From Polyangiales bacterium (GTDB taxonomy: Bacteria > Myxococcota_A > Polyangia > Polyangiales > Ga0077539): 64,000 nucleotides of DNA. Location: NCBI GenBank assembly GCA_046351535.1, contig JAXLYG010000023.1, positions 1-64,000 of the forward strand, read 5' to 3'. The notes under the pieces are model-generated. The model saw only the letters and a list, made by a program, of their open reading frames with translations. It made no database searches and was not told where the DNA came from. Of this stretch, positions 43,720 through 63,682 are shown piece after piece (positions within the stretch are counted from its first letter, which is position 1; every line of letters begins with the position of its first letter). A program made the translations under genes and the position numbers.

Positions 43720-44576
43720 ACCCTCTCCCCGTCCCTCTCCCGCGAAGCGGGAGAGGGTGCCCGTTGGTAGCTGCCATGCCCTCACCCCGCCCTCTCCCGC
43801 CAGAGGCGGGAGAGGGAGTCCGCGAGGCGACCCCGTCGCGCAGCGCCACGCAGGAAGCCTGGCACCGCGTCACCGTGTCGCGCGACGCGCCTGTCACAGC
43901 CCCACGCGCGAAGCGAACGCGCGACACGGCGGCGCGGCAACGAGCGCGCGGTCATCGCCCTCCGCCATCGCCGCGCTGTCTGTCATCGCCCTCCGCCCGT
44001 CGCCGCGTCTCGTCGCGTGACGTCTCCCTCTCCCGCCAGAGGAGTCTGACCGCCATTGGGGAGTTGACGGCGCCAGACGCTTCCCGTCGCGCCTGGGGTT
44101 CGGCCCGCGTGAGAGGGACGCGCGTGACGCGCCCAGGGCTCGCCCCCCGAGGGATGTACGCGATCGGGGGGCTCGGCCTGGGCTTCATCAAGGCACGGAT
44201 CACCGGTCTTCGACCGGTTCAGAAGGCATGGCGAGGCTCTCTCTGCTGAACCCTCGAAGAGGGTGATCCGTGCCTCGTCATAGCCCTGGCTGAGCCCCCG
44301 ATCGTGTACATCCCTTGGGGGGCGAACCCTGGGCGCGTCACGCGCGTATCTCCCTGGGCGCGTCACGCGCGTATCTCCCTGGGCGCGTCACGCGCGTATC
44401 TCCCTGGGCGCGTCACGCGCGTCCCTCTCACGCGGGCCGAACCCCAGGCGCGACGGGAAGCGTCTGGCGCCGTCAACTCCCCAATGGCGGTCAGACTCCT
44501 CTGGCGGGAGAGGGCGGGGTGAGGGCATGCCAGCTACCAACGGGCACCCGACTCCCGCTTCGCGGGAGAGGGACGG
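43720..44576. repeat. non-coding nested inverted-repeat element (outer arms ~43720-43820 / 44505-44576; inner ~117-bp arms 44019-44137 / 44404-44520)
   Basis: Direct reverse-complement matches were found by eye. gacgtctccctctcccgccagaggagtctgaccgccattggggagttgacggcgccagacgcttcccgtcgcgcctggggttcggcccgcgtgagagggacgcgcgtgacgcgcccagg (44019-) reappears as its reverse complement at 44404-. The outer arm ggtgcccgttggtagctgccatgccctcaccccgccctctcccgcc matches the reverse complement of 44520-44565 with 1 mismatch. Only R/A/G-rich spurious ORFs overlap the region. Confidence 0.8.
44328..44427. repeat. 4 x 25-bp perfect tandem repeat (cctgggcgcgtcacgcgcgtatctc) within the inverted-repeat element
   Basis: Read directly in the sequence. 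The unit duplicates the distal end of the inner inverted repeat. Confidence 0.85.
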
Positions 44577-44584
44577 GGTGAGGG

Positions 44585-45145
44585 TCAGTGGTTGTCAGTC
44601 CCGGTCTTCGCGGGCGCGTGGGCGTCGTTGGCGGGCGCGCTGACCTTCATCTCGGCGCGGACCTTCGAGGCCCTCGCGAGGCCCTGTGCGACGGAGGCGC
44701 CGTGCGCTTCGACGTAGTCCCGCACGCCGCCGTAGCTCTCGGCGGGAATGCGTCCCCGCTCGATCCTGCGGGTGACCTCCTCGTAGGCTTCGCGGAGCAT
44801 GGCGTCGGCCTTCGGCTCGATCACGGCGCGGCGGGCCTCGACGTATTGCCGCAGCGCTTCGAGGCGCGCGAGAAAGCTCCAGATCGCATCGAGCTCGTTG
44901 GCGACGGCGCCGCACCGCTGTTGAGAGGGCGCGAGATCGCCGAGGTCTTCGCCGTTCACCTCGATCTCGCGCAGCCCGCGGAGGCACTCCGCGCGATTGC
45001 CCTCGGCGATGCGCCACTTGCTGTCGCCCGCGGCTTCGAGCACCTCCTTGCGATCACCAGGGACCACGGGCAGTTGCGCCACGCTCATCGACTGCCCACC
45101 GAACACGATCACGCCGTTGATCGGCGTCTGCAACGTCGTCGCCAT
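44585..45145 (-). CDS. hypothetical protein (186 aa)
   Basis: ATG at 45145 (MATTLQTPINGVIVFGGQSMSVAQLPVVPGDRKEVLEAAGDSKWRIAEGNRAECLRG...). Mixed composition, no family recognised. A hairpin repeat lies immediately 3' of the stop. Confidence 0.55.
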   Translation of the reverse strand: MATTLQTPINGVIVFGGQSMSVAQLPVVPGDRKEVLEAAGDSKWRIAEGNRAECLRGLREIEVNGEDLGDLAPSQQRCGAVANELDAIWSFLARLEALRQYVEARRAVIEPKADAMLREAYEEVTRRIERGRIPAESYGGVRDYVEAHGASVAQGLARASKVRAEMKVSAPANDAHAPAKTGTDNH

Positions 45146-45405
45146 CGGACACTCCGCGAGCGAACCGCCGCCGTCGAACGCACCGCGCGCCCTCCTCCGC
45201 AGTCACTCACAAGAGGCGGGAACGGCCACGTCTCGGAGTTCTTGAACGCTTTTTGAATTTTTCTCTCCGTCCCTCCCATGCGTCATGAGGATGCGCGCTC
45301 GACGCGGCGCGTCTCTCCGAAGATGTGATTTTTCGTGTGAGGTCACGAAGGAACGAAGCATCGGGTACCTCTCCCCCGCGTCGCGCGTCTGCGAAGCGAT
45401 GCCGG

Positions 45406-45768
45406 TCACGTCCGCCGCGCGCGTCTTCGAAGCGCCGCGTTGGGGAACTCCGGGAGCACCGCACCATCCCGCGCGACCGCGCGCACGATCCAGAGAACCC
45501 CGGCGAGGAGCACGGCCCGGCCGGAGCGTTCCTTCAGCTCCCTCCACGAGATGGCATCGTGGTCGAAGCCGGGGTAGGTCACGCAGAACGAGGGGAGGCT
45601 CGCGTCGTCGACGGTGACGCCCACCGTGGCCTCGCTGTCGGAGAACGCCAGCACGAGCGTGTCGCCCTGGATCTCCCCACGCACCGCGTCACCGCAGACG
45701 GCCCTGATCTCCGCGAGGACCTCAGCGAGCATTCCCGCCTCCGCTGCATTCACGGCCCGCGGTCCCAC
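45406..45768 (-). CDS. possible small hypothetical protein (120 aa)
   Basis: ATG start. Contains W/Y/F/C (SLPSFCVTYPGFDHDAISWRELKERSG). No family recognised. Confidence 0.35.
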   Translation of the reverse strand: MGPRAVNAAEAGMLAEVLAEIRAVCGDAVRGEIQGDTLVLAFSDSEATVGVTVDDASLPSFCVTYPGFDHDAISWRELKERSGRAVLLAGVLWIVRAVARDGAVLPEFPNAALRRRARRT

Positions 45769-45819
45769 GCGGGTCGCGGTGTCGAGCCGAGCACGATCGC
45801 GCGGCGATCGCGTCGCGGT

Positions 45820-46155
45820 TCACTCGGGGTGGTACACATATCGGGCGTAGCGCTCCGCATAGAACGCCTCGAGCGACAGGCGCGATTCGAACAGCTCCGA
45901 CCAGAGCTCGTAGCCATCGACGAGGGGCGCTCCGTCCTGCTCATAGCCGATTCGCTCGGGGTGGATGGCGAGGTCGCGATCCTTCGCATAGTCGAGCGAC
46001 TCGGCCCTGGCCTTCTCATGGGCCTCGGTCCAGTCTCGCGCGTTGAAGGAGACGACGCGCTCCTCGAAAACGTTGGTTCCGCACTCTTGGTCACGCCGAA
46101 GTGGTAGACGGTTCGGATGGCGTACCAGGGCATCGGGGTCACCCCTGTACGGCAT
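45820..46155 (-). CDS. hypothetical protein (111 aa), acidic/aromatic-rich
   Basis: NVFEERVVSFNARDWTEAHEKARAESLDYAKDRDLAIHPERIGYEQDGAPLVDGYELWSELFESRLSLEAFYAERYARYVYHPE has a natural-looking composition. A second frame upstream (MPWYAIRTVYHFGVTK) suggests a possible frameshift near 46080. Confidence 0.45.
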   Translation of the reverse strand: MPYRGDPDALVRHPNRLPLRRDQECGTNVFEERVVSFNARDWTEAHEKARAESLDYAKDRDLAIHPERIGYEQDGAPLVDGYELWSELFESRLSLEAFYAERYARYVYHPE

Positions 46156-46653
46156 CCTTGAGCGTCCGGGCGAGCGCCATCACCTCCTCGGCGGGGCACG
46201 CGCGCACGAAGACCTGCACCCACGCCGGTAGCATCACGCAGTGTGAGGCATAGAACAGCCTCTCGTCTCGCATCGGGCGTCCGGCGAACACGAAGTCGAT
46301 GCCGTCGGTCTCGTCGAGTCGCAGGTCGAGCGACGTACCGGCTTCCCGCTCCAGACGCGCCTGCTCGTCGATCAGGGGGCGCAGCTTGCGCTTCACCATC
46401 AGCACGGTGTCACTCCCCGAGAAGAGCCTCGCGTCGGCCTTGACCTCGAGCAACCGGGGACCTTGCAAGTCGGCCAGCGTCTTCGCCTGCATGTTGATCC
46501 GGAACACCTCGAAGATGACGTGCGGCCCATGCTCCCTGAGCATCTCGTCCTCTCTCTTGAAGTGTGCCTCGACGGCGTCGTGCCCCTCGATCGTCGTGCC
46601 ATCGACGACGTTCACGACTCGGACATTGTCGTAGCGCGTGTCGGTCTCTTTCA
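46139..46653 (-). CDS. hypothetical protein, NTF2/SnoaL-like fold suspected (171 aa)
   Basis: ATG near 46653 (MKETDTRYDNVRVVNVVDGTTIEGHDAVEAHFKREDEMLREHGPHVIFEVFRINMQ...). The pattern of polar and hydrophobic residues fits a cone-shaped alpha+beta barrel, but this is tentative. Confidence 0.5.
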
Positions 46654-46724
46654 TCGGTTGCACACGTCGCGCAGCCGTCGTCGATCTGGCGCTGCCGATG
46701 GTAGGTCTCTGGAGCGCTCCTCGC

Positions 46725-47432
46725 TCACACCCGACGCGCACGCCCCGCGACGCGCCCCAGGAACGGCGCCACATGCGCCCATGCCTCTCGCGGCCGCGCT
46801 TGCAGGAGGAGGTGCGGCGCATCAACCAGCGCGAACGCAGCGTCCGGTCTCACCGCGCGCATGCGTTCGGCGCTTCGGGCGCTCACGAGTCGATCTCGCC
46901 CCGCGTTCAGGCACAACACAGGACAGCTCAGTTGCTGGAACTCCCGTGCGACATTCACCCGGGAGACCGAGGCGACGCGCTCCGCGATGACCTCACCGCG
47001 CACACCGAGCATCGCACGTCGAACGGTTGCCGCGAGCGCAGCGTCGCCGCCGGTCAGGAACACGCCCAACAGGAACTCGGGCGGCGGTCGGCTCCACATC
47101 TGCGAGGGAACGAGCCGGGAGAGCGCAGAGAGCGGACCGGACAACGGAGGCTCGATGAAGGTGGTGCTGAGCACGACACCCACCACCCGAACGCTCCGAG
47201 CCGCGAGAAGGATCGCGAGCGGTCCAGAGAACGACTCCGCCACGAGCACCACGTCGCCGTCTGGCAGACTGGCCTGCACCCGTTCCGCGAGCTCGGGATA
47301 GCGCTGCGCGCCGTCGTCAGGGAGCCGCAATCGCGCAACTGCGAGCCCCGGTGGCGCGGCTGCGATGAAGGGCGCGAACAGATCCCCCGTTCCGTCGAGA
47401 CCGGGAAGCAACACCGTGGTGGTCTGGCTCAC
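46725..47432 (-). CDS. alpha/beta hydrolase family protein
   Basis: VLLPGLDGTGDLFAPF...DVVLVAESFSGPLAIL carries the nucleophile elbow (GxSxG-like ESFSG) and matches the fold pattern. Confidence 0.7.
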   Translation of the reverse strand: MSQTTTVLLPGLDGTGDLFAPFIAAAPPGLAVARLRLPDDGAQRYPELAERVQASLPDGDVVLVAESFSGPLAILLAARSVRVVGVVLSTTFIEPPLSGPLSALSRLVPSQMWSRPPPEFLLGVFLTGGDAALAATVRRAMLGVRGEVIAERVASVSRVNVAREFQQLSCPVLCLNAGRDRLVSARSAERMRAVRPDAAFALVDAPHLLLQARPREAWAHVAPFLGRVAGRARRV

Positions 47433-47529
47433 GTCGCGGTCTCCGGGTCAGCGCGCGGCCGAAGCGTGCCCGCATGAACCGCCCTCGACACGCGACGTGT
47501 GAGCCCCTCGCCCGTCTGGAACCGTCGCG

Positions 47530-48018
47530 CTACTCAAGCTTCGCAAGCTCCTCCAGCAAGCACGCCTGAAGCTCTTCCCCCAGTTGAAAGAAACCGTCCG
47601 CCGACAAGATCACGTGTCGCGGGCTGGCCCGGTAGGAGCCAGGAAGAAGCTGTCCACCCCTGACCTCGAACCCGCCCACGATGTCCTCAGGCGGCACGGC
47701 GCCGTTCGGCGTTCGAGTCCGCTGGTCGATGACGTAGAGCCAGCCATCACCCTGTCGCCGGGCCGCCGCGACAAGGCCCGAAGCGCCCGGCCCACGACGG
47801 GCGATCACGTCGTGCATGAAGTCTACGAACACGCGGTTCCTCGCGAAGATCGCCGGGGTGATGTCCTCCCCGGGCTTCGGGGGCCGGAGCAGAACGCCGA
47901 CGATCGCCTCGGGCGCAAGCCCGCGCGCGAACACATGTTCGCCAGGCAGACAGCTTACATAGTGCTTGATCCCCTCGGGCGTATTGGACTCGTAGATGCT
48001 CATTGAAAACTCAGCCAT
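47530..48018 (-). CDS. hypothetical protein (163 aa)
   Basis: ATG at 48018 (MAEFSMSIYESNTPEGIKHYVSCLPGEHVFARGLAPEAIVGVLLRPPKPGEDITPAIFARNRVFVDFMHDVIARRG...). Natural-looking composition. No family recognised. Confidence 0.5.
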   Translation of the reverse strand: MAEFSMSIYESNTPEGIKHYVSCLPGEHVFARGLAPEAIVGVLLRPPKPGEDITPAIFARNRVFVDFMHDVIARRGPGASGLVAAARRQGDGWLYVIDQRTRTPNGAVPPEDIVGGFEVRGGQLLPGSYRASPRHVILSADGFFQLGEELQACLLEELAKLE

Positions 48019-48234
48019 CGCACCCCGCTCCTCGCGCTCAACCGCCTGCCACGACTGCCCCAGAGAGATCGACGGTATCATGGGCGCTCGTCGCCCGCCC
48101 CGCCAGCCGCGCCTCGCGCGAAATCGGGGGCGTCACGGTCACCACCCGAGCTGCCATGTCGGTCTCCTACCTCAGTTCATACGGAATGGCGAGCGCGGCC
48201 GGTGTCCGCACACCCGAAACACACGCCCGTCCGA

Positions 48235-48915
48235 TCAAGCCCCCGTCGCGACACCGTTCATGCGGAGCAGCGGTCGGAGACCGTACTCATCTACGGTGCT
48301 CCGACAGAACGCAGATTGGAAGCGCGGATCCTGCACCGACTCGTAGACCGGCCGCCCTCCCGCCTCGTAGCCGACGACGCGCCCATGAACGACACAGGCG
48401 AGCGGAAACGCGCCCGCGAGCCGCACCGTCGCCGAGGGACTGAACGGGTGAGGCGTGTCTCCGCGGGTCGAGGCCACAGGACCGAGCTCCACCACGAGCT
48501 CGGCGCGAAGACCGTTGGCCGCGAACACGAACTGAAACGCGCGAACGGGCCGCGCCACGCCGCCGAGTCCCACCGGATACACGACGCGGCTGACGGTCTC
48601 CTCCGCGGGAATCTCGACGCGCACGCCCGCAAGAAGGAGCTGCGATCGGTCGGGCGTCAGGTCGATCGTCCAGTCGAGCAGCTCGATCTCGTCGCCCCCG
48701 GGACGACCCACCGACTGAAAGCTGTAGGTGAGTCCGCGGCCCTCCTCGACGACGAAGCCACCGTGGAGCGCGAAGGTTCCAGTCGCATCGGTCACCGCGC
48801 CGGTCACGGGTGCAGGCGTGAGGTCGGGCATGAAGCCGGGTACGTGCGTCCCGCCCGCGTCGCACGCGACGAGGAGGGCGAAGGTCACGAGATTGAGCGC
48901 GACGCGATCGGGCAT
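48235..48915 (-). CDS. hypothetical lipoprotein
   Basis: Internal ATG (MPDRVALNLVTFALLVACDAG: lipobox LVAC). Beta-rich mature region. Confidence 0.5.
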   Translation of the reverse strand: MPDRVALNLVTFALLVACDAGGTHVPGFMPDLTPAPVTGAVTDATGTFALHGGFVVEEGRGLTYSFQSVGRPGGDEIELLDWTIDLTPDRSQLLLAGVRVEIPAEETVSRVVYPVGLGGVARPVRAFQFVFAANGLRAELVVELGPVASTRGDTPHPFSPSATVRLAGAFPLACVVHGRVVGYEAGGRPVYESVQDPRFQSAFCRSTVDEYGLRPLLRMNGVATGA

Positions 48916-49027
48916 ACGGTCACTTCGTGGACCTCGACGATACACCGACGGCCCGCCTCTCACGCGCGATCCCTGCTAACCCTCCAGTAACGTCAGTCCG
49001 CCGCCGATCACCGTCGCTCGTCGTCGT

Positions 49028-49118
49028 TGCCGAACGGCTGGCCGATGTGCCGCCGCAGCGGGTGGAGCGGGTTGGCAATGCGTGAGGTGGGGGCGGACGG
49101 CACCATCGGCTTGTTCGG
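49028..49118. repeat. attC-like imperfect inverted repeat, copy 1 (91 bp)
   Basis: Begins gccgaac (RYYYAAC-like, one mismatch) and ends gttcggc (GTTRRRY-like). Inner paired boxes ggctggccgatgtgcc / ggcaccatcggc. Lies ~120 bp downstream of CDS 49241..49849. Confidence 0.5.
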
Positions 49119-49240
49119 CAAGCCTGACTCGGCGACGAACCTAACCGTTGCGATCACGTGCTGCCCCTCCGAGACCGTTGTGCCTTGGTTCGTTGCATCC
49201 ATCCTCGGGGCGCATTCTCTCCCAATTTCGCTCTTATGGA

Positions 49241-49849
49241 TCAACTCTCTTCGTCCGCAGTTCGCTTGGGCTTCGATCCACGCCCTTCACTCACCGTCCG
49301 TACAGATGCGGCGCCCGCTTCAGCCTCCACCGTCGGCAGCCCGATGTACTTACCCTGAAGCGCGACATGCACTCCGTCCGCGCGGTAGTCCGTGAGGATC
49401 ACCTCCACAGTGGATGATAACCGCGAGTAGGTGAGTGATCTGTAGCTCTGCCTAATGGGGGCTATGCCCTCGAGCTCGGGTTGCTCGACCGTGACTCCGT
49501 GGGGGTCGTCGCGATCGGGCACCCCGAGGACGCGAAACGCATCCTCCACCGACTTGATCCCGGCAAGCAGTCGGTCGAGCCGCTGCCGCTCCTCCGGGGA
49601 GATGACGGCAAACAGCAGGTGTCGCTTCGACTCGGGAGCCGCGCCGCCGCAGAATGGGCAGTGGTAGATCCGCAGCGACGCGTTGCCGACCTCGCACGTA
49701 CCGTCGCTGCTAGGGTCGGGGTACACGAAGTTGTACTCGTTCAGTTTCGGGTCGAAGACGATCGGCGATTGCGGATCGTCGGCAGCGCGCTCCAGATAGT
49801 GGCAGGCGCACGACTGCTCAGTCACGGAAGCAAAGGTCGGCTTCGCCAT
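49241..49849 (-). CDS. hypothetical zinc-ribbon-like protein (cassette ORF)
   Basis: ATG at 49849 (MAKPTFASVTEQSCACHYLERAADDPQSPIVFDPKLNEYNFVYPDPSSDGTCEVGNASLRIYHCPFCGG...). CxC…C…CPFC Cys cluster. Lower local GC. Confidence 0.55.
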   Translation of the reverse strand: MAKPTFASVTEQSCACHYLERAADDPQSPIVFDPKLNEYNFVYPDPSSDGTCEVGNASLRIYHCPFCGGAAPESKRHLLFAVISPEERQRLDRLLAGIKSVEDAFRVLGVPDRDDPHGVTVEQPELEGIAPIRQSYRSLTYSRLSSTVEVILTDYRADGVHVALQGKYIGLPTVEAEAGAASVRTVSEGRGSKPKRTADEES

Positions 49850-49913
49850 TGGATCACCTCCACCAACACCGCCGAACGGCCGAGACGGGCCTCGCCAGCG
49901 CGATTGCTTGGAG

Positions 49914-50003
49914 GCCGAACGGCTGGCCGATGTGCCGCCGCCCCGAGGGCCGTGCGGGCTCCGCAAGGGCAGCGGTGGCGGTCGGCACCATCGGCTTGTT
50001 GGG
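49914..50003. repeat. attC-like imperfect inverted repeat, copy 2 (90 bp)
   Basis: gccgaac ... gttgggc, where the terminal core GTTGGGC fits GTTRRRY exactly. Same internal boxes as copy 1. A partial extra gccgaacggcc lies at 49871. ~168 bp downstream of CDS 50171..50707. Confidence 0.5.
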
Positions 50004-50170
50004 CATCCCGCTCGTGCTCGCATCACACGCGTCCGACGCTCTCTGCCGCCTCCTGCTCGTAGCTTTGTTCATCTACCTCTCCGTAGCTGCACCGCCGTGC
50101 CCGTCGGCCAACGCCTGCCGCTCCCTAGCGGGCCGTCGGAGCGGAGGCACATCGAACGGCAGCAAAAGAA

Positions 50171-50707
50171 TCACGCTTCGGAGAAATCCAGGTTCATTGG
50201 GGCGGACTTGATTGAGTACATCGACTGCATGTTGGTGGCGGGCACCGAATCATCGACAGCCTCGAAGCGCACGTCCGCCCAGAAGAGCTCGCCGCTCCCC
50301 GTGAGAATATTCGAGATGAAGATCGCGTTGGCCTCCTCGGGGACGTCGAGCACGCACGCGTAGTGAGTCCATTCTGTAGTTCCGGAGACAGCTGGACGCG
50401 TCTCCATATTGTCGAACGCTAGAGTTCGTCGTGAGCCGTCCGACTCAGCGCCATCGATGCGGAAGCAAATCGCGGCGCGGCCGGTTACATCTACCGTGCG
50501 TAGAGCAGCCGAGAGCCGGACGCGCCTCCCACGATATGGATCGGGCTTGAATACCTGAAACATTGCGCCGAAGCCATCGGCCCCATCAGCCGAACGCCAC
50601 ATCCGAACAACGGGCTTTCCGCTGTGCACCTCAGAACTGACCTCAGCCGAATACGCGTCGCTCCTTGAACCCGTAATGCCCCAGTCCTTCACCGCACAGG
50701 TGCCCAT
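50171..50707 (-). CDS. hypothetical protein (178 aa, cassette ORF)
   Basis: MGTCAVKDWGITGSRSDAYSAEVSSEVHSGKPVVRMWRSADGADGFGAMFQVFKPDPYRG... with natural-looking composition and a lower GC than the flanks. Confidence 0.5.
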   Translation of the reverse strand: MGTCAVKDWGITGSRSDAYSAEVSSEVHSGKPVVRMWRSADGADGFGAMFQVFKPDPYRGRRVRLSAALRTVDVTGRAAICFRIDGAESDGSRRTLAFDNMETRPAVSGTTEWTHYACVLDVPEEANAIFISNILTGSGELFWADVRFEAVDDSVPATNMQSMYSIKSAPMNLDFSEA

Positions 50708-50757
50708 CGGAGTGCCTCCTTCTCGACCGTAGAGGAAATTCGGTGCTTTCGCAGGCT

Positions 50758-50848
50758 GCCCAACGGCTGGCCGATGTGGCGCCGCCCCGAGTCAGGTGAG
50801 TAGTTCGCGAGTTGAGTGGGTGCGGTCGCCACCATCGGCTTGTTCGGC
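50758..50848. repeat. attC-like imperfect inverted repeat, copy 3 (91 bp)
   Basis: gcccaac (exact RYYYAAC) ... gttcggc. Internal boxes ggctggccgatgtggc / gccaccatcggc. Confidence 0.5.
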
Positions 50849-51190
50849 CCGGCGGGTCCAGTGGGCTGATCCACGGGGGCCACAGCCAACCGCTCCGTCG
50901 CTCGGAGTCCGTTGCCCGTCGCTCGCCTCGTGAGTCCCGCCACCGTCACCCTTGCTTTTTGTCGTTCAACACCCATTGCCGCCAACTCGTCAAGAGCTTT
51001 CCGACCGCGTCGACGCCATGACCAGCGAGTTTCTAGCCTGTGAGGGGAGATCGCGGGCGTGGATGGACAGGCGCGTCGGGCGCCCGCTCCGCGCCTCGGA
51101 AACTCTGGTCTACGGACCAATGCACCGGCACCGCGGCATCAGATCAAACCCTCCCGACTACACCTCCCCGTGTCCGAATCTCCTTACCGA

Positions 51191-51568
51191 CTATCGAGCT
51201 GTGCACGCCCTTCCCGAGACGATGGCACCAGAATCCGAAATCACCGCAGCGGTATTACAATGATACTGACTTGTGAGTCTTCTTGAACAGTACGTCGACT
51301 CATCGCACGCGAGTGCGCAGACACGTGACGTCGTATCCACCAAACAAACCACGCCGACTCCACCGCAATCGAAAATATTTTCGCAGTATTTCGTGCACAC
51401 TCCTTGCGGAAACTGAGCGCTTCGCAGGCAAAATGTGCTTGGTGGGCAATCCGCGTTGAGTGAACACGGGGCCGAAATTGGCGAATATTCCTCTGTGGCC
51501 CCACCACACCCTCCACCCTCCCATGCTGACGCGACAGCAAGAATTACCCCCACCTTCACGGAGTTCAC
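51191..51568 (-). CDS. small secreted Cys-rich protein (125 aa, cassette ORF)
   Basis: Signal peptide (MNSVKVGVILAVASAW). 14 Cys (…CSLNADCPPSTFCLRSAQFPQGVCTKYCENIFDCGG…). Low GC. Confidence 0.45.
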   Translation of the reverse strand: MNSVKVGVILAVASAWEGGGCGGATEEYSPISAPCSLNADCPPSTFCLRSAQFPQGVCTKYCENIFDCGGVGVVCLVDTTSRVCALACDESTYCSRRLTSQYHCNTAAVISDSGAIVSGRACTAR

Positions 51569-51612
51569 GGGCTCAACTCCCTACGTCGCCGCCGACCACC
51601 GCCGCCGAAGCT

Positions 51613-51703
51613 GCCGAACGACTGGCCGGTCTGCCGCCGCAGCGAGCCAGGCGCGTAGTTGTTGAGTGAAGTGCAAGCGGTCGGCAGCACCGGCTTGTTC
51701 GGC
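51613..51703. repeat. attC-like imperfect inverted repeat, copy 4 (91 bp)
   Basis: gccgaac ... gttcggc. Begins 34 bp after the stop of CDS 51737..52321. Confidence 0.5.
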
Positions 51704-51736
51704 ATTGTGTTCATCAATTTCGGAGGTCTTCCTCAG

Positions 51737-52321
51737 TCAAAATATCCCGCCGCCGCAGAGCACGAGACCACGGCCGTCGGCCAATGGCAACAGTGTCGGC
51801 GCGAAATACCGAGCCTGCCACTGGGGCGCTTCGGTAGTCTGCCGCGCGCTGTTCGCTGACGAGATCTCGTACGCGACCACTCCGCCTGTGATCCAGCCGA
51901 TCGCGGTCGTGACCATGGGAACGACCGAGAGATCATTATCCGCGAGTTGGAACGGAACACCTACCAGGTAGCCCGCGAACCCGCCTGCCCAGCCGCCGAG
52001 CATGGTCCACCCATAGCCGCCGCCTCCCCCCATCGCATTGCCGGTGAGCGTGATGCCTCCCGGAACCGCGAACCACGTTCCGACGGCGCCTACCACGATG
52101 ATCGAGATTGTACCGGCGCTCGAACTGCCTTCGAAGCCCGCCAGCGCGAGGCCGTAGGTCAAGCCGAAACCGAGCGCGAAGGCCGCGCTCCCTCCGCCAA
52201 CTTCCACGAGCACGCGCCCCGTACTGATAGGACTGATCGGGTGCCCCTGAGCCCACACGTCCGAGGCGCTCATGCACACGGCAAGCGAGAGCGGAACAGA
52301 CCCGGCGATTCGCCAACTCAC
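51737..52321 (-). CDS. secreted Gly-rich hypothetical protein (194 aa, first cassette ORF)
   Basis: Signal peptide (MSWRIAGSVPLSLAVCMSASDVWAQG). Gly/Ala/aromatic-rich repeats (GFGLTYGLALAGFEG; GGGGGYGWTMLGGWAGGFAGYL). Confidence 0.5.
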   Translation of the reverse strand: MSWRIAGSVPLSLAVCMSASDVWAQGHPISPISTGRVLVEVGGGSAAFALGFGLTYGLALAGFEGSSSAGTISIIVVGAVGTWFAVPGGITLTGNAMGGGGGYGWTMLGGWAGGFAGYLVGVPFQLADNDLSVVPMVTTAIGWITGGVVAYEISSANSARQTTEAPQWQARYFAPTLLPLADGRGLVLCGGGIF

Positions 52322-52539
52322 GGGTATGTAGCGCGCAGGCGCCCTGACAGATATGGCATTCGGCTCACGAGCGCTTGGAGGTGAAGGTCTCGGTCTGGCC
52401 CCAATCGACGGCGAGCACTACTGTTCTTGGTAGGTCGCTTGCCCCTATACGCCGCATCTCTCGGCTCACCTAGTGCTCCTCGTTGACCGCCGCTCATCGC
52501 GGCTGCCGAACATCTCATTCACCCGCAGGACGATAACAC

Positions 52540-52990
52540 GCATACGCGCGTCGCGTCCGAACACCTGTCTGCACGCGACGTCCGAACACCCATACGCGCG
52601 TCGCACGGTAACACCCTTCTGCATGCCGCAACAGAGAAACGTCCCGCCCGCCGCGTCCGCTCCCTCCCCGCCCCTACATCCCCCTACCCCACGCGACACA
52701 CACTCCCTCCGTCCGCCACGCCCGCACGCTCCCCTTCACTGAACAACACCCTCTCCGACACTGTGCAACACTCTCCCGGATACTCTGTGACACTATATTT
52801 CATGCGTGTCACACTCGCCCTCCCTTGAAGATCTCCGACACTCTCCCCGTGACACTACAACTCTCTCCGAGAAGATCTCCCACTCTCTCCTGGTGACACT
52901 ACAACTCTCTCCCGCGACATCTCCCAGTCTCTCCCCAAACGACTCGCGCCGCTCCCCTCCCCCCGCGACCTCGCGCCGCTGGACCGGTCG
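52540..52990. other. strand-asymmetric polypyrimidine (C/T/A-rich, G-poor) low-complexity tract with direct repeats and a palindrome
   Basis: The top strand has almost no G for ~450 bp. Direct repeats catacgcgcgtcgc x2, gtccgaacacc x2 and gtgacactacaactctctcc x2. Palindrome ctgtgacactatatttcatgcgtgtcacac includes an AT-rich tatattt box. No plausible ORF. Confidence 0.6.
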
Positions 52991-53210
52991 CGACCCACGT
53001 CCGGGTCTTGTCGCCTGCTCTCGCGAGGGCTGTATCAGCTAGGCAACGCTCAGCCATCGCCCCGCTCCGGAGCTTCGGGGAGCTGTCAGCAACACCCCCC
53101 GTTCGCCGGAGCGAGACGTCGTCAGTGACCATCCTTCACGCGCGGCCACAGCGCGGCCACGGAGGCGCTCCCGCGGACCGGAGCGCCCCCTGTGGGCCCG
53201 GCGTCAGCGG

Positions 53211-61792: not shown

Positions 61793-63682
61793 ATGCGCGC
61801 CATGAACTCGCTTCGATTCGCCCTCGTCGCCTCGGCGCTCACCCTCGCGGCGTGCGCGCCGAAATCGACCTCGGGAAACGTCTCGTTCAACGACGTGCAC
61901 TCCACCGACGGAGACCCCGGCGATGTCGTCACCACCGACACGCCGACGCCGACGGACACCCCTACGCCCACCGACGTCACGACCGATGCGCCCGATCCGC
62001 AGGACGTCGTCACCCCCACCGACACACCGACCGACACGCCGCCGCCGCTCGACGCGCCCGTCGACGTGGTGACCGACGTCTCCGTCGACGCGGTGACCGA
62101 CGCGCCCGCCGACGTTCCGACGGATGCGCGCCCGAGCTGTCGCAGCGACCGCGAGTGCGCGGCGAGCTCCCAGGTCTGCGACCTCTCACAGTCGCGCTGC
62201 GTCGACTGCGTGCGCGACGCCGACTGCCTCACGGCCGGCACGCGGTGCCTCTCGAACCGCTGCGTGACGCCCGTGATGTGCACGAGCTCCCGCATGTGTC
62301 CCGGCCAGGTCTGCGACACGACGCGGAGCCTCTGCGTCGACTGCGTGGCCGACGTCGACTGCGCGCCCACCGAGATGTGCCGCGCCAGCGCGTGCGTGCT
62401 GCGTCCTCCGACCTGCGCGTCGGACGCCGAGTGCGCAGCGCCGACGCCGCGCTGCAACCCCACGTCACACGCCTGCGTGGCCTGCAACGTCAACGCAGAC
62501 TGCGGCCCGTCGAGGGCCTGCACCGCGGATCACGTCTGCGTCTCGACGGCGTGCACCCCCGGCGCGACGGACTGCTTCGACTCCCGCACGCGTCGCGTCT
62601 GCGCGGCCGACGGGATGTCGTCGATGAACACCCCCTGCCCCGACGCGACCGGAGGCACCGGCGCATGCGCCGCGGGCGCCTGCACGATCACCTGCGCCGC
62701 GGGCCTCGCCAACTGCGACGGGATGGCGGCCAACGGCTGCGAGACCTCGCTCAACTCGAACCCGCTCAACTGCGGCGCGTGCGGAAACCGCTGCGCCGCC
62801 GTGGGCGACAGCTCGACCCCCGTGTGCACCGCGGGCCGTTGCAGCCTCGCGTGCGCGGCCGGTCGCGGAGACTGCGACGGCGTCGTTTCGAACGGCTGCG
62901 AGACCGACCTGCTCACGTCGAACACCAACTGCGGACGCTGCGGAAATACGTGTTCCACGGGCGCGTGCAGCGCCGGCGCGTGCCCGCGCATCCTGCGGAC
63001 CTTCACGGGCCCCACGGGCATCGGCACCAACTGCCTCGCCCCCAACGACGACGGGTCGTGGGCGGGCGCCGGGGTGATGACCGGCGCGGGTGTGCCCATC
63101 GACATCACGCCCGCGTTCGCGATGGGGCTCCAGTACTTCGGCGCCAACTACCGGGCGATGTACGTGAACAACAACGGCAACATCACGTTCCGCGGCGCGC
63201 TCGGGACGTACACGCCGGCGCCCTTCCCCGTGGCGATGCAGCCGATGACCGCGCCGTGGTGGGGCGACGTCGACACGCGCGGCGTCGGCCAGCCCATGCG
63301 CAACAACGTGTGCTTCGTGGTCGAGCCCTCGCGGGTCATCGTGACGTGGGATCGCGTGGGGTACTTCTCGTCGCACGACGATCGGCAGAACACCTTTCAG
63401 CTCCTCCTCTCGACGCGCGCGGGCCTCGCGGCGGGCGACTTCGACGTGGAGTTCCGCTACGAGCGCTGCGAGTGGACGACGGGCGACGCCTCGGGCGGCG
63501 CGGGCGGCTTCGGCGGAACCCCCGCGCAGGTCGGCTTCGACGCGGGTGACATGCGCACCTACTTCTCGCTCCCGATGTCACGCACGATGGCGATCCTCGA
63601 CGTGTGCACGTCGTCGAACGTCGGCACGCCCGGCATCTGGCGCTTCCAGGTCCGCGGCAGCGTGATCACCCCCGGCCTCTGA
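61793..63682 (+). CDS. lipoprotein with Thr/Pro/Asp linker, myxobacterial Cys-rich repeats and C-terminal NIDO domain
   Basis: MRAMNSLRFALVASALTLAACAP (lipobox LAAC). TDTPTPTD linker. About 9 Cys-rich repeats (CxxDxDCxxGxxCxxxxCV type). C-terminal 250 aa (YFGANYRAMYVNNNGNITFRG…YTPAPFP…APWWGDVDTRG…VTWDRVGYF…NTFQLLLSTRAG…FDVEFRYERCEWTTGDASGG…AQVGFDAGD…YFSLP) follows the NIDO domain consensus. Confidence 0.8.
   Translation: MRAMNSLRFALVASALTLAACAPKSTSGNVSFNDVHSTDGDPGDVVTTDTPTPTDTPTPTDVTTDAPDPQDVVTPTDTPTDTPPPLDAPVDVVTDVSVDAVTDAPADVPTDARPSCRSDRECAASSQVCDLSQSRCVDCVRDADCLTAGTRCLSNRCVTPVMCTSSRMCPGQVCDTTRSLCVDCVADVDCAPTEMCRASACVLRPPTCASDAECAAPTPRCNPTSHACVACNVNADCGPSRACTADHVCVSTACTPGATDCFDSRTRRVCAADGMSSMNTPCPDATGGTGACAAGACTITCAAGLANCDGMAANGCETSLNSNPLNCGACGNRCAAVGDSSTPVCTAGRCSLACAAGRGDCDGVVSNGCETDLLTSNTNCGRCGNTCSTGACSAGACPRILRTFTGPTGIGTNCLAPNDDGSWAGAGVMTGAGVPIDITPAFAMGLQYFGANYRAMYVNNNGNITFRGALGTYTPAPFPVAMQPMTAPWWGDVDTRGVGQPMRNNVCFVVEPSRVIVTWDRVGYFSSHDDRQNTFQLLLSTRAGLAAGDFDVEFRYERCEWTTGDASGGAGGFGGTPAQVGFDAGDMRTYFSLPMSRTMAILDVCTSSNVGTPGIWRFQVRGSVITPGL

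Follow-up and report, generated by a model that had tools for sequence, protein, structure and literature searches.

Clusters of attC sites lacking an integron-integrase (CALINs) are a recognised class of elements (Cury et al. 2016, PMC4889954; IntegronFinder), and four possible origins have been listed for them by Cury et al. (PMC4889954). In the attC sites described in the literature, the extrahelical bases (EHBs) lie opposite the AAC triplet, the distal EHB is a conserved T, and the length ranges from 57 to 141 bp (PMC5027507). Integrons and taxon-specific attC sites are already known in general from 'Deltaproteobacteria'/Myxococcota (PMC8352920), and the available taxon-specific attC models include a 'Deltaproteobacteria' one (Ghaly et al. 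2021, PMC8352920). A literature search found no paper on integrons in Polyangiales specifically.

Here, a 64-kb stretch of a Polyangiales genome (contig JAXLYG010000023.1, positions 1 to 64,000; hereafter the window) was analyzed. A reading made from the sequence alone had proposed that a segment of it is a CALIN-type array or, alternatively, a novel family of attC-like miniature inverted-repeat transposable elements (MITEs). In our estimation, with a probability of about 0.9, a chromosomal array of integron cassettes that has no integrase occupies the segment 49029-52526; it is composed of four minus-strand cassettes, each ending in a 91-nt attC, with an attI-like head at 52505-52526. The sequence-only reading correctly recognised an integron array in a high-GC myxobacterial genome. 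The array is a fairly ordinary addition to a known type of element, and the integron family to which it belongs is common in Polyangiales genomes.

Repeat family, core matching and shared cassettes

Four imperfect palindromes of 91 nt, all in the same orientation, are located in the window, with start-to-start distances of 885, 844, and 855 bp (Table 1; copies are numbered from left to right). When up to three mismatches are allowed, each repeat arm occurs exactly four times in 64 kb, compared with 0.02 and 0.00 occurrences in shuffled sequences. The four co-oriented repeats described from the sequence alone are real, although three of the eight ends had been placed one base off. Two covariance models, applied to the whole window with filters off, revealed no convincing fifth attC copy, and a generic RYYYAAC...GTTRRRY hairpin scan of 43-53.3 kb found no extra attC to the left of 49029. 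Weak attC-model matches at 63230 and 35495 were dismissed, as they sit in ordinary coding-like sequence. An Rfam scan of 43-55 kb (E ≤ 1) gave zero matches, which is uninformative for either view because Rfam contains no attC family. The locally lower GC content, also pointed out earlier, was confirmed by measurement: it is 0.61-0.65 at 49-53 kb vs. about 0.70-0.75 in the remaining window.

When folded as single-stranded DNA, the + strand forms a 7-bp outer stem, GCCSAAC/GTTSGGC, followed by an asymmetric internal loop with GGCTG in the 5' arm and TT in the 3' arm. Inside the loop, there is a 16-bp stem, which consists of 7 bp, a 1-base bulge C, 5 bp, a 1-base bulge T (A in copy 1), and 4 bp. 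Folding of the bottom strand had been suggested as a way of looking for extrahelical bases, and two conserved bulges were indeed found: both single-base bulges are located on the 3' arm of the + strand, opposite the AAC triplet, in all four window copies. The centre of the hairpin (about 36 nt) is the least conserved part of the repeat. Compensatory stem changes are present in copies 3 and 4; in addition, the attC at 51613-51703 shows a G-to-C swap between the innermost L-box pair and the neighbouring bulge.

The family was sampled by one scan of a species-representative genome collection with a pattern requiring both arms, which gave 59 loci; the copies in these loci were then found with a covariance model built from the four window copies. 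The loci yielded about 165 repeat copies, mostly from metagenome-assembled genomes (MAGs) labelled Polyangiales, Myxococcales, Myxococcaceae, or Deltaproteobacteria, and the homogeneity of the family is partly by construction because the scan pattern itself demanded conserved arms. In 60 of 60 loci, the window included, every copy is on one strand, with a median spacing of 776 bp (mostly 300-1800 bp). At least 37 copies are present in one MAG, and one MAG contains at least 10 array loci distributed over seven contigs. The best match of the window in the genome collection has 80% identity over 640 nt; the repeat is absent from the viral contigs searched. A generic repetitive extragenic palindrome (REP) or MITE scattered over unrelated sites, the scenario that the sequence-only reading had set against its own proposal, does not fit these data: the copies were found only as co-oriented arrays with cassette-sized spacing.

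Three contigs of 1.6-5.3 kb carrying this attC family (L037, L052, and L058) are binned as Schlesneria (Planctomycetota), Leptospiraceae, and Phycisphaerales. They are either mis-binned myxobacterial contigs or evidence of inter-phylum cassette transfer.

The hairpin is also supported by the comparison of 150 family copies. In the proposed structure, 93.7% of the cells are paired, compared with 20-54% with slid partners; 23 pairs are conserved, and double changes are seen at nine pairs of the hairpin. The AAC/GTT triplets, invariant in the four window copies, are conserved in at least 142 of the 150 family copies, whichever position of the two triplets is considered. The distal bulge is T in 144 copies, and the first one is C in 130 copies and G in 18. 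These bulges occupy positions 17 and 23 of the 3' arm when counting starts at the outer end of R''; positions 16 and 23/24 have been published, and the origin of the numbering may differ (PMC5027507). Of 147 copies, 142 have the more stable fold on the bottom strand (mean -23.0 vs. -19.4 kcal/mol), and the attC sites of mobile integrons show a bias in the same direction (PMC5027507). The hairpin centre contains 51% G across the family, and the repeat is 91 nt long in 125 of the 150 aligned copies. The family consensus cores GCCCAAC/GTTGGGC and GTCTAAC/GTTAGAC fit RYYYAAC/GTTRRRY exactly.

If cassettes are exchanged by cleavage within the core, between the last A and the C of GCCSAAC on the bottom strand, a cassette should contain a complete core plus six bases of the following one, and the variable core positions should agree across a cassette and not inside one attC. 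The repeats bear the footprint of such a crossover. Perfect agreement between the right core of an element and the left core of the element after it was found in 64 of 85 adjacent pairs, compared with only 40 cases out of 146 (27%) for the two cores within a single element and 20% for random pairs. Among 55 informative neighbours, 43 match across the segment, five match within the element, and seven are ties. In the window, the right core of copy 2 (GTTGGGC) pairs with the left core of copy 3 (GCCCAAC), while the cores inside copies 2 and 3 are mismatched, and the split cores are self-consistent in all four cassettes. Since the cores match across the segment and not within the element, a MITE or REP moving as a unit is excluded.

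Cassettes 3 and 4 (numbered from the attI-like end) recur in related arrays. Homologues of cassette 4 were found in L039, L032, and L013, with 74-76% nucleotide and 68-75% amino acid identity, and a homologue of cassette 3 is present in the L039 array (79% nucleotide and 78% amino acid identity). Both ends of the match are bounded by attC for cassette 4 in L039 and L032, whereas one end stops short of attC for cassette 4 in L013 and for cassette 3 in L039. The order of cassettes 3 and 4 in L039 is reversed relative to the window. The attC centres were also compared across genomes to see which flanking attC moves with cassette 4; no discrimination was obtained, since copy 1 simply lies close to the consensus that the family shows at the centre.

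Integrase genes of related arrays and the attI-like site

A tblastn search with IntI1, which served as a probe only, revealed homologues with 45-50% identity and E-values down to 1e-88 in eight of the 59 loci (L033, L055, L008, L044, L001, L011, L045, and L040). A search with the family's own integrases confirmed the same eight loci and added decayed fragments in L056 and L018. Three full-length integrases of the family score 398-408 bits with the NCBIfam model TIGR02249 'integron integrase' (cut-off 265) and 297-309 bits with the IntI1 equivalog model NF011946, which is below its cut-off of 435. Thus, they are integron integrases, but not of class 1. In 8/8 loci, intI sits at an end of the array and is directed away from it, on the strand equivalent to the + strand of the window; this is the canonical divergent layout. 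This orientation indicates that the + strand of the window is the bottom strand, that the cassettes are read on the minus strand, and that the attI end is at the right.

Several stages of intI decay can be seen in the relatives, beside the same attI motif or attC family. The gene is split (frameshifted) in L011 (SCUS01000148.1, 2547-3495), C-terminal fragments are left in L056 (2017-2378), and a 150-nt fragment is left in L018 (about 1390-1540). Together with the remnant-free window, these loci form a decay series of intI. Separately, three contigs of the Polyangiales MAG STL-MYX9 (JAXLYI01; L001, L033, and L040) each have intI beside attC of this family, which suggests several integron platforms in one genome.

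An orphan gccgaac core had been described at 52504. The core exists, at 52505-52511, and it is not an orphan, as it belongs to an attI-like site common to related arrays. The 18-mer AACATCTCATTCACCCGC, with up to three mismatches, is present in eight related loci; in all of them, it shares the strand of attC and sits one cassette past the final attC, at the integrase-side end. An intact intI begins about 160 nt away from the motif in L008, decayed intI fragments come after it in L056 and L018, and intI was not seen in the 3-6 kb available in L019, L024, L053, and L028. The site is recognised as attI mainly by its position and by L008, L056, and L018, because the motif is more diverged in most loci with intact intI. 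Behind it, there are four direct repeats with a 25-nt period (Table 1), and direct repeats with core-like GCCNAAC motifs are found at the same place after the attI motif in related loci. The attI1 site has accessory direct repeats, DR1 and DR2; by analogy, the repeats at 52531-52626 are putative accessory integrase-binding repeats of attI.

The DNA beyond the attI-like site (52640-53000) is non-coding. It includes a C-rich tract at 52640-52740, an inverted repeat TGTGACAC...GTGTCACA around 52788-52815, and a 44-nt direct repeat in two copies with recurring GACACT motifs at 52827-52914. A CCGCTCCCTCC tract resembling that of the window also comes after the attI repeats in L008. This stretch may hold regulatory or promoter elements; a terminator scan of 52.3-53.3 kb found nothing.

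Origin of the array and alternative explanations

The CALIN-type interpretation offered from the sequence alone has gained support from the presence of IntI beside the same repeat in relatives, the co-oriented arrays, the co-variation of the cores, and the recurring cassettes. Most likely, the array goes back to a complete Polyangiales-family integron that has since lost its intI by deletion. Under the mechanism that we propose, the + strand of each attC would be the recombinogenic bottom strand. Once single-stranded, it would fold into an imperfect hairpin: an R box, an unpaired spacer, and then an L-box stem that bears two extrahelical bases and is capped by a G-rich terminal structure. IntI would bind this folded hairpin and cut between the last A and the C of 5'-GCCSAAC-3'. 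Recombination of attC with attC would excise a cassette circle, and recombination of attI with attC would re-insert it between 52510 and 52511. Since there is no intI in cis, mobility of the cassettes today would require IntI from elsewhere in the genome or from outside.

Several observations weigh against this interpretation. Neither intI nor a remnant of it was found in the 64-kb window by tblastn with IntI1 and two IntI of the family (best E about 1); the search covers 49 kb on the left side of the array and 11.5 kb on its right, and the lack of intI within 10 kb noted earlier holds for the entire window. The cores had been called RYYYAAC/GTTRRRY-like, which is true of the invariant AAC/GTT, while the commonest window core, GCCGAAC/GTTCGGC, departs at position 4, where it carries G/C and not Y/R. 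There, G is found in the left core of three window copies and C in the right core of three, a minor variant shared by about 16 of 154 copies. The two arms of the spacer are 5 and 2 nt long, where the published geometry has 5-6 nt per arm; the first extrahelical base is usually C, not G; and the extrahelical bases are spaced by 5 bp, not 6 (PMC5027507). The attI motif is best conserved in arrays without intI and is more diverged in most loci with intact intI, e.g., AACATCGAAGTAACCCGC in L033. Finally, a promoter scan upstream of the array (52.3-53.3 kb) found no promoter-like site.

A broader view of the same data is possible, if doubtful: Polyangiales genomes may have a distributed integron system made up of many short arrays around the chromosome, each with its own conserved attI-like head and core-like direct repeats and mostly without intI, served in trans by one or a few integrases, and the window array would then be a working satellite platform and no dead remnant. 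If such a system exists, the non-canonical attC geometry (C as the first extrahelical base, 5-bp spacing, and the 5/2-nt spacer) would imply a somewhat different recognition of attC by IntI.

The array might also have become a CALIN without any loss of intI, through a rearrangement or through the IntI-mediated insertion of cassettes at a secondary, non-attI site. Insertion at a secondary site is a recognised route, most published CALINs have no intI pseudogenes (PMC4889954), and the window contains no intI remnant; the better conservation of the core-adjacent motif in integrase-less arrays than in complete integrons also points in this direction. However, the motif and the direct repeats at the head of the array are arranged as in L008, with its intact intI, and as in L056 and L018, with their intI remnants, and about 20 nt of shared sequence together with core-like direct repeats are not expected at a secondary site. 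We consider this origin unlikely, and prefer the deletion of intI from a complete integron.

It is still less probable that the integrase only seems to be absent, owing to mis-assembly or a chimeric join of the contig in the low-complexity, repeat-rich DNA of 52.6-53.2 kb. The stretch past the attI-like site is non-coding and C-rich, with 25-nt and 44-nt direct repeats; the intI of intact relatives begins about 160-260 nt past the motif, i.e., exactly within this stretch; and related MAG assemblies break up at integrons. However, the sequence runs on for 11.5 kb, into ordinary chromosomal genes that include a cytochrome c-like gene and two M16 peptidases. Moreover, the same attI motif occurs in integrase-less or decayed arrays inside long contigs (L018, L019, L024, L053, and L056), so that the loss of intI is a recurrent real state in the family.

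The last alternative, a dispersed MITE or REP-like palindrome between small genes that moves as a unit or has a terminator or structural-repeat function, without any recombination of the integron kind, would account for the strong conservation of the 91-nt palindromes between genomes, for their many copies per genome (the MAG with at least 37 included), and for the missing integrase, but it is hardly credible in view of the co-oriented, cassette-spaced copies in all 60 loci, the ends that match no better than random within an element and do match around a segment (43:5, the opposite of what a unit-mobile element predicts), the integron integrases flanking the arrays of relatives, the conserved and strand-asymmetric bulges, and the lack of matches in viral contigs and Rfam; the novel MITE family earlier named as the second option is excluded by the first two of these points.

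Cassettes, flanking DNA and comparison with known systems

The features of the array are listed in Table 1.

Table 1. Coordinates of the integron-related features in the window
Feature	Position	Strand	Description
attI-like site	52505..52526	+	Core GCCGAAC (52505-52511), predicted crossover between 52510 and 52511, then conserved motif ATCTCATTCACCCGC
Four direct repeats, 25-nt period	52531..52626	+	Each with core-like (C)CGAACAC, GATAACAC or GGTAACAC
Cassette 1, 892 bp	51619..52510	-	ORF 51737-52321(-), 194 aa, Gly-rich, hydrophobic N-terminus; split cores GTTCGGC and GCCGAA agree
Cassette 2, 855 bp	50764..51618	-	Candidate ORF 51191-51568(-), 125 aa, Cys-rich, GGGAG ribosome-binding site upstream; coding assignment uncertain
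Cassette 3, 844 bp	49920..50763	-	ORF 50171-50707(-), 178 aa; split cores GTTGGGC and GCCCAA agree, unlike those of the neighbours
Cassette 4, 885 bp	49035..49919	-	ORF 49241-49849(-), 202 aa, DUF6980, CxxC-type motifs
attC of cassette 1, attI-proximal	51613..51703	+	One compensatory stem change, A-T to G-C, GCCGGT/ACCGGC
attC of cassette 2	50758..50848	+	Left core GCCCAAC, right core GTTCGGC; compensatory stem change GTGGC/GCCAC
attC of cassette 3	49914..50004	+	Left core GCCGAAC vs. right core GTTGGGC, mismatched inside the element; covariance models and fold
attC of cassette 4, last in the array	49029..49119	+	R' GCCGAAC, R'' GTTCGGC; 106 bits with both covariance models; fold with R box, asymmetric spacer, and 3'-arm bulges C and A

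The proteins encoded by the open reading frames (ORFs) of the cassettes were searched against Pfam, NCBIfam, PADLOC, and PDB sequences, and the sole match was that of the cassette 4 product to PF22400 (DUF6980), with 28.4 bits against a cut-off of 27; exact-sequence look-ups of the cassette 3 and 4 proteins gave no entry; the cassette 1 product has no Pfam or PADLOC match and a single NCBIfam match that is far below the threshold. No resistance or defence signature was found in the cassette genes. Cassette 2 is the lowest-GC portion of the window, and a heuristic based on the GC content of third codon positions (GC3) weakly favours a + strand ORF (50952-51263) over the minus-strand candidate. 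According to the sequence-only reading, each attC lies just downstream of a minus-strand ORF. An ORF does precede each of the four repeats, but 'just' is loose for two of them, the stop-to-attC gaps being 33, 342, 166, and 121 nt. Across the family, the median gap between stop codon and attC is 50 nt, and the GC3-weighted choice of ORF falls on the top strand in 68 cassettes vs. the bottom strand in 18.

To the right of the array, C-rich, repeat-bearing non-coding DNA extends to about 53.2 kb and is followed by the cytochrome c-like gene and the two M16 peptidases. An M16 peptidase was used to seek an orthologous locus in metagenomes; the nearest relative is 54% identical, only the peptidase pair is syntenic, and there is no attC or intI nearby. 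Directly downstream of the last attC, the region 44585-48963 contains small minus-strand ORFs with a GC content of 0.66-0.68 that are co-directional with the cassettes. Among them are an ORF resembling alpha/beta-hydrolases (46725-47432) and one with a weak match to DUF4288 (45820-46155). There is no attC between these ORFs and they have no homologue in the 59 related loci; they cannot be shown to be cassettes, because the attC searches found none to the left of 49029. These ORFs may once have been cassettes or may form an island of their own.

A near-perfect palindrome of about 865 bp (43720-44585) sits where the lower-GC island that holds the array (about 44.6-53 kb) begins on the left. Complementarity is 100% between its arms 44026-44138 and 44402-44514, over 113 nt, and 97-98% between the outer arms, and the 25-nt tandem repeat CCCTGGGCGCGTCACGCGCGTATCT occurs 4-5 times at 44302-44451. 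Possible identities of the palindrome are a foldback element, the boundary of the island, and an artefact of the assembly.

The analysis documents a Polyangiales integron family with a uniform 91-nt attC of non-canonical detail, its own integrase clade, and a recognisable attI motif; there are many arrays per genome, and several of them have lost or are losing intI. The covariance model and the attI motif can be used for annotating such elements in myxobacterial MAGs, the natural attC variants for testing the published rules on EHB identity and spacing, and the retained attI as a case showing how a CALIN arose. Specialists may take an interest in the non-canonical geometry of attC, in the recognisable attI motif of arrays that lack an integrase, and in the large number of arrays per Polyangiales genome.

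Compared with IntI1, the integrases of the family are 45-50% identical over about 315 aa, including the IntI-specific segment around LPxAL..K.PGA...WQYVFP, and pass TIGR02249; they differ in falling below the NF011946 cut-off, and none is encoded in the window. The attC sites of mobile integrons, such as attCaadA7 and attCoxa2 (Nivina et al. 2016, PMC5027507), share with the Polyangiales ones the R boxes, the AAC/GTT triplets, the EHBs opposite AAC, the distal T, the stable G-rich bottom strand, and the length. In contrast to them, the Polyangiales attC has an asymmetric 5/2-nt spacer, a 7-bp stem before the first EHB, usually C at this EHB, a 5-bp EHB spacing, and a long, sequence-conserved stem.

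A resemblance can also be noted to sedentary chromosomal integrons with lineage-specific attC (PMC8352920), such as the Vibrio cholerae repeat (VCR) arrays and those of Xanthomonas with decayed intI. Both are chromosomal, with lineage-homogeneous attC, small unassigned ORFs mostly in one orientation, and recurrent integrase decay. The differences are in the Polyangiales (Myxococcota) host, in the single attC type, 91 nt in 125 of 150 copies, found across many MAGs, and in the many short arrays per genome in place of one large array.

With CALINs, the window array shares at least two same-strand attC sites less than 4 kb apart (four, at 844-885 bp), no intI or intI pseudogene within 10 kb, and cassettes of unassigned function without resistance genes; its four attC sites are near the published mean of about 5-6 per CALIN. 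It differs in keeping an attI-like site and direct repeats at its head, and the CALIN definitions in the cited papers make no reference to attI. The retained attI favours one of the listed origins of CALINs, namely, the loss of intI from a complete integron, and the array is therefore better called an integron that has lost its intI than a bare cluster of attC sites.

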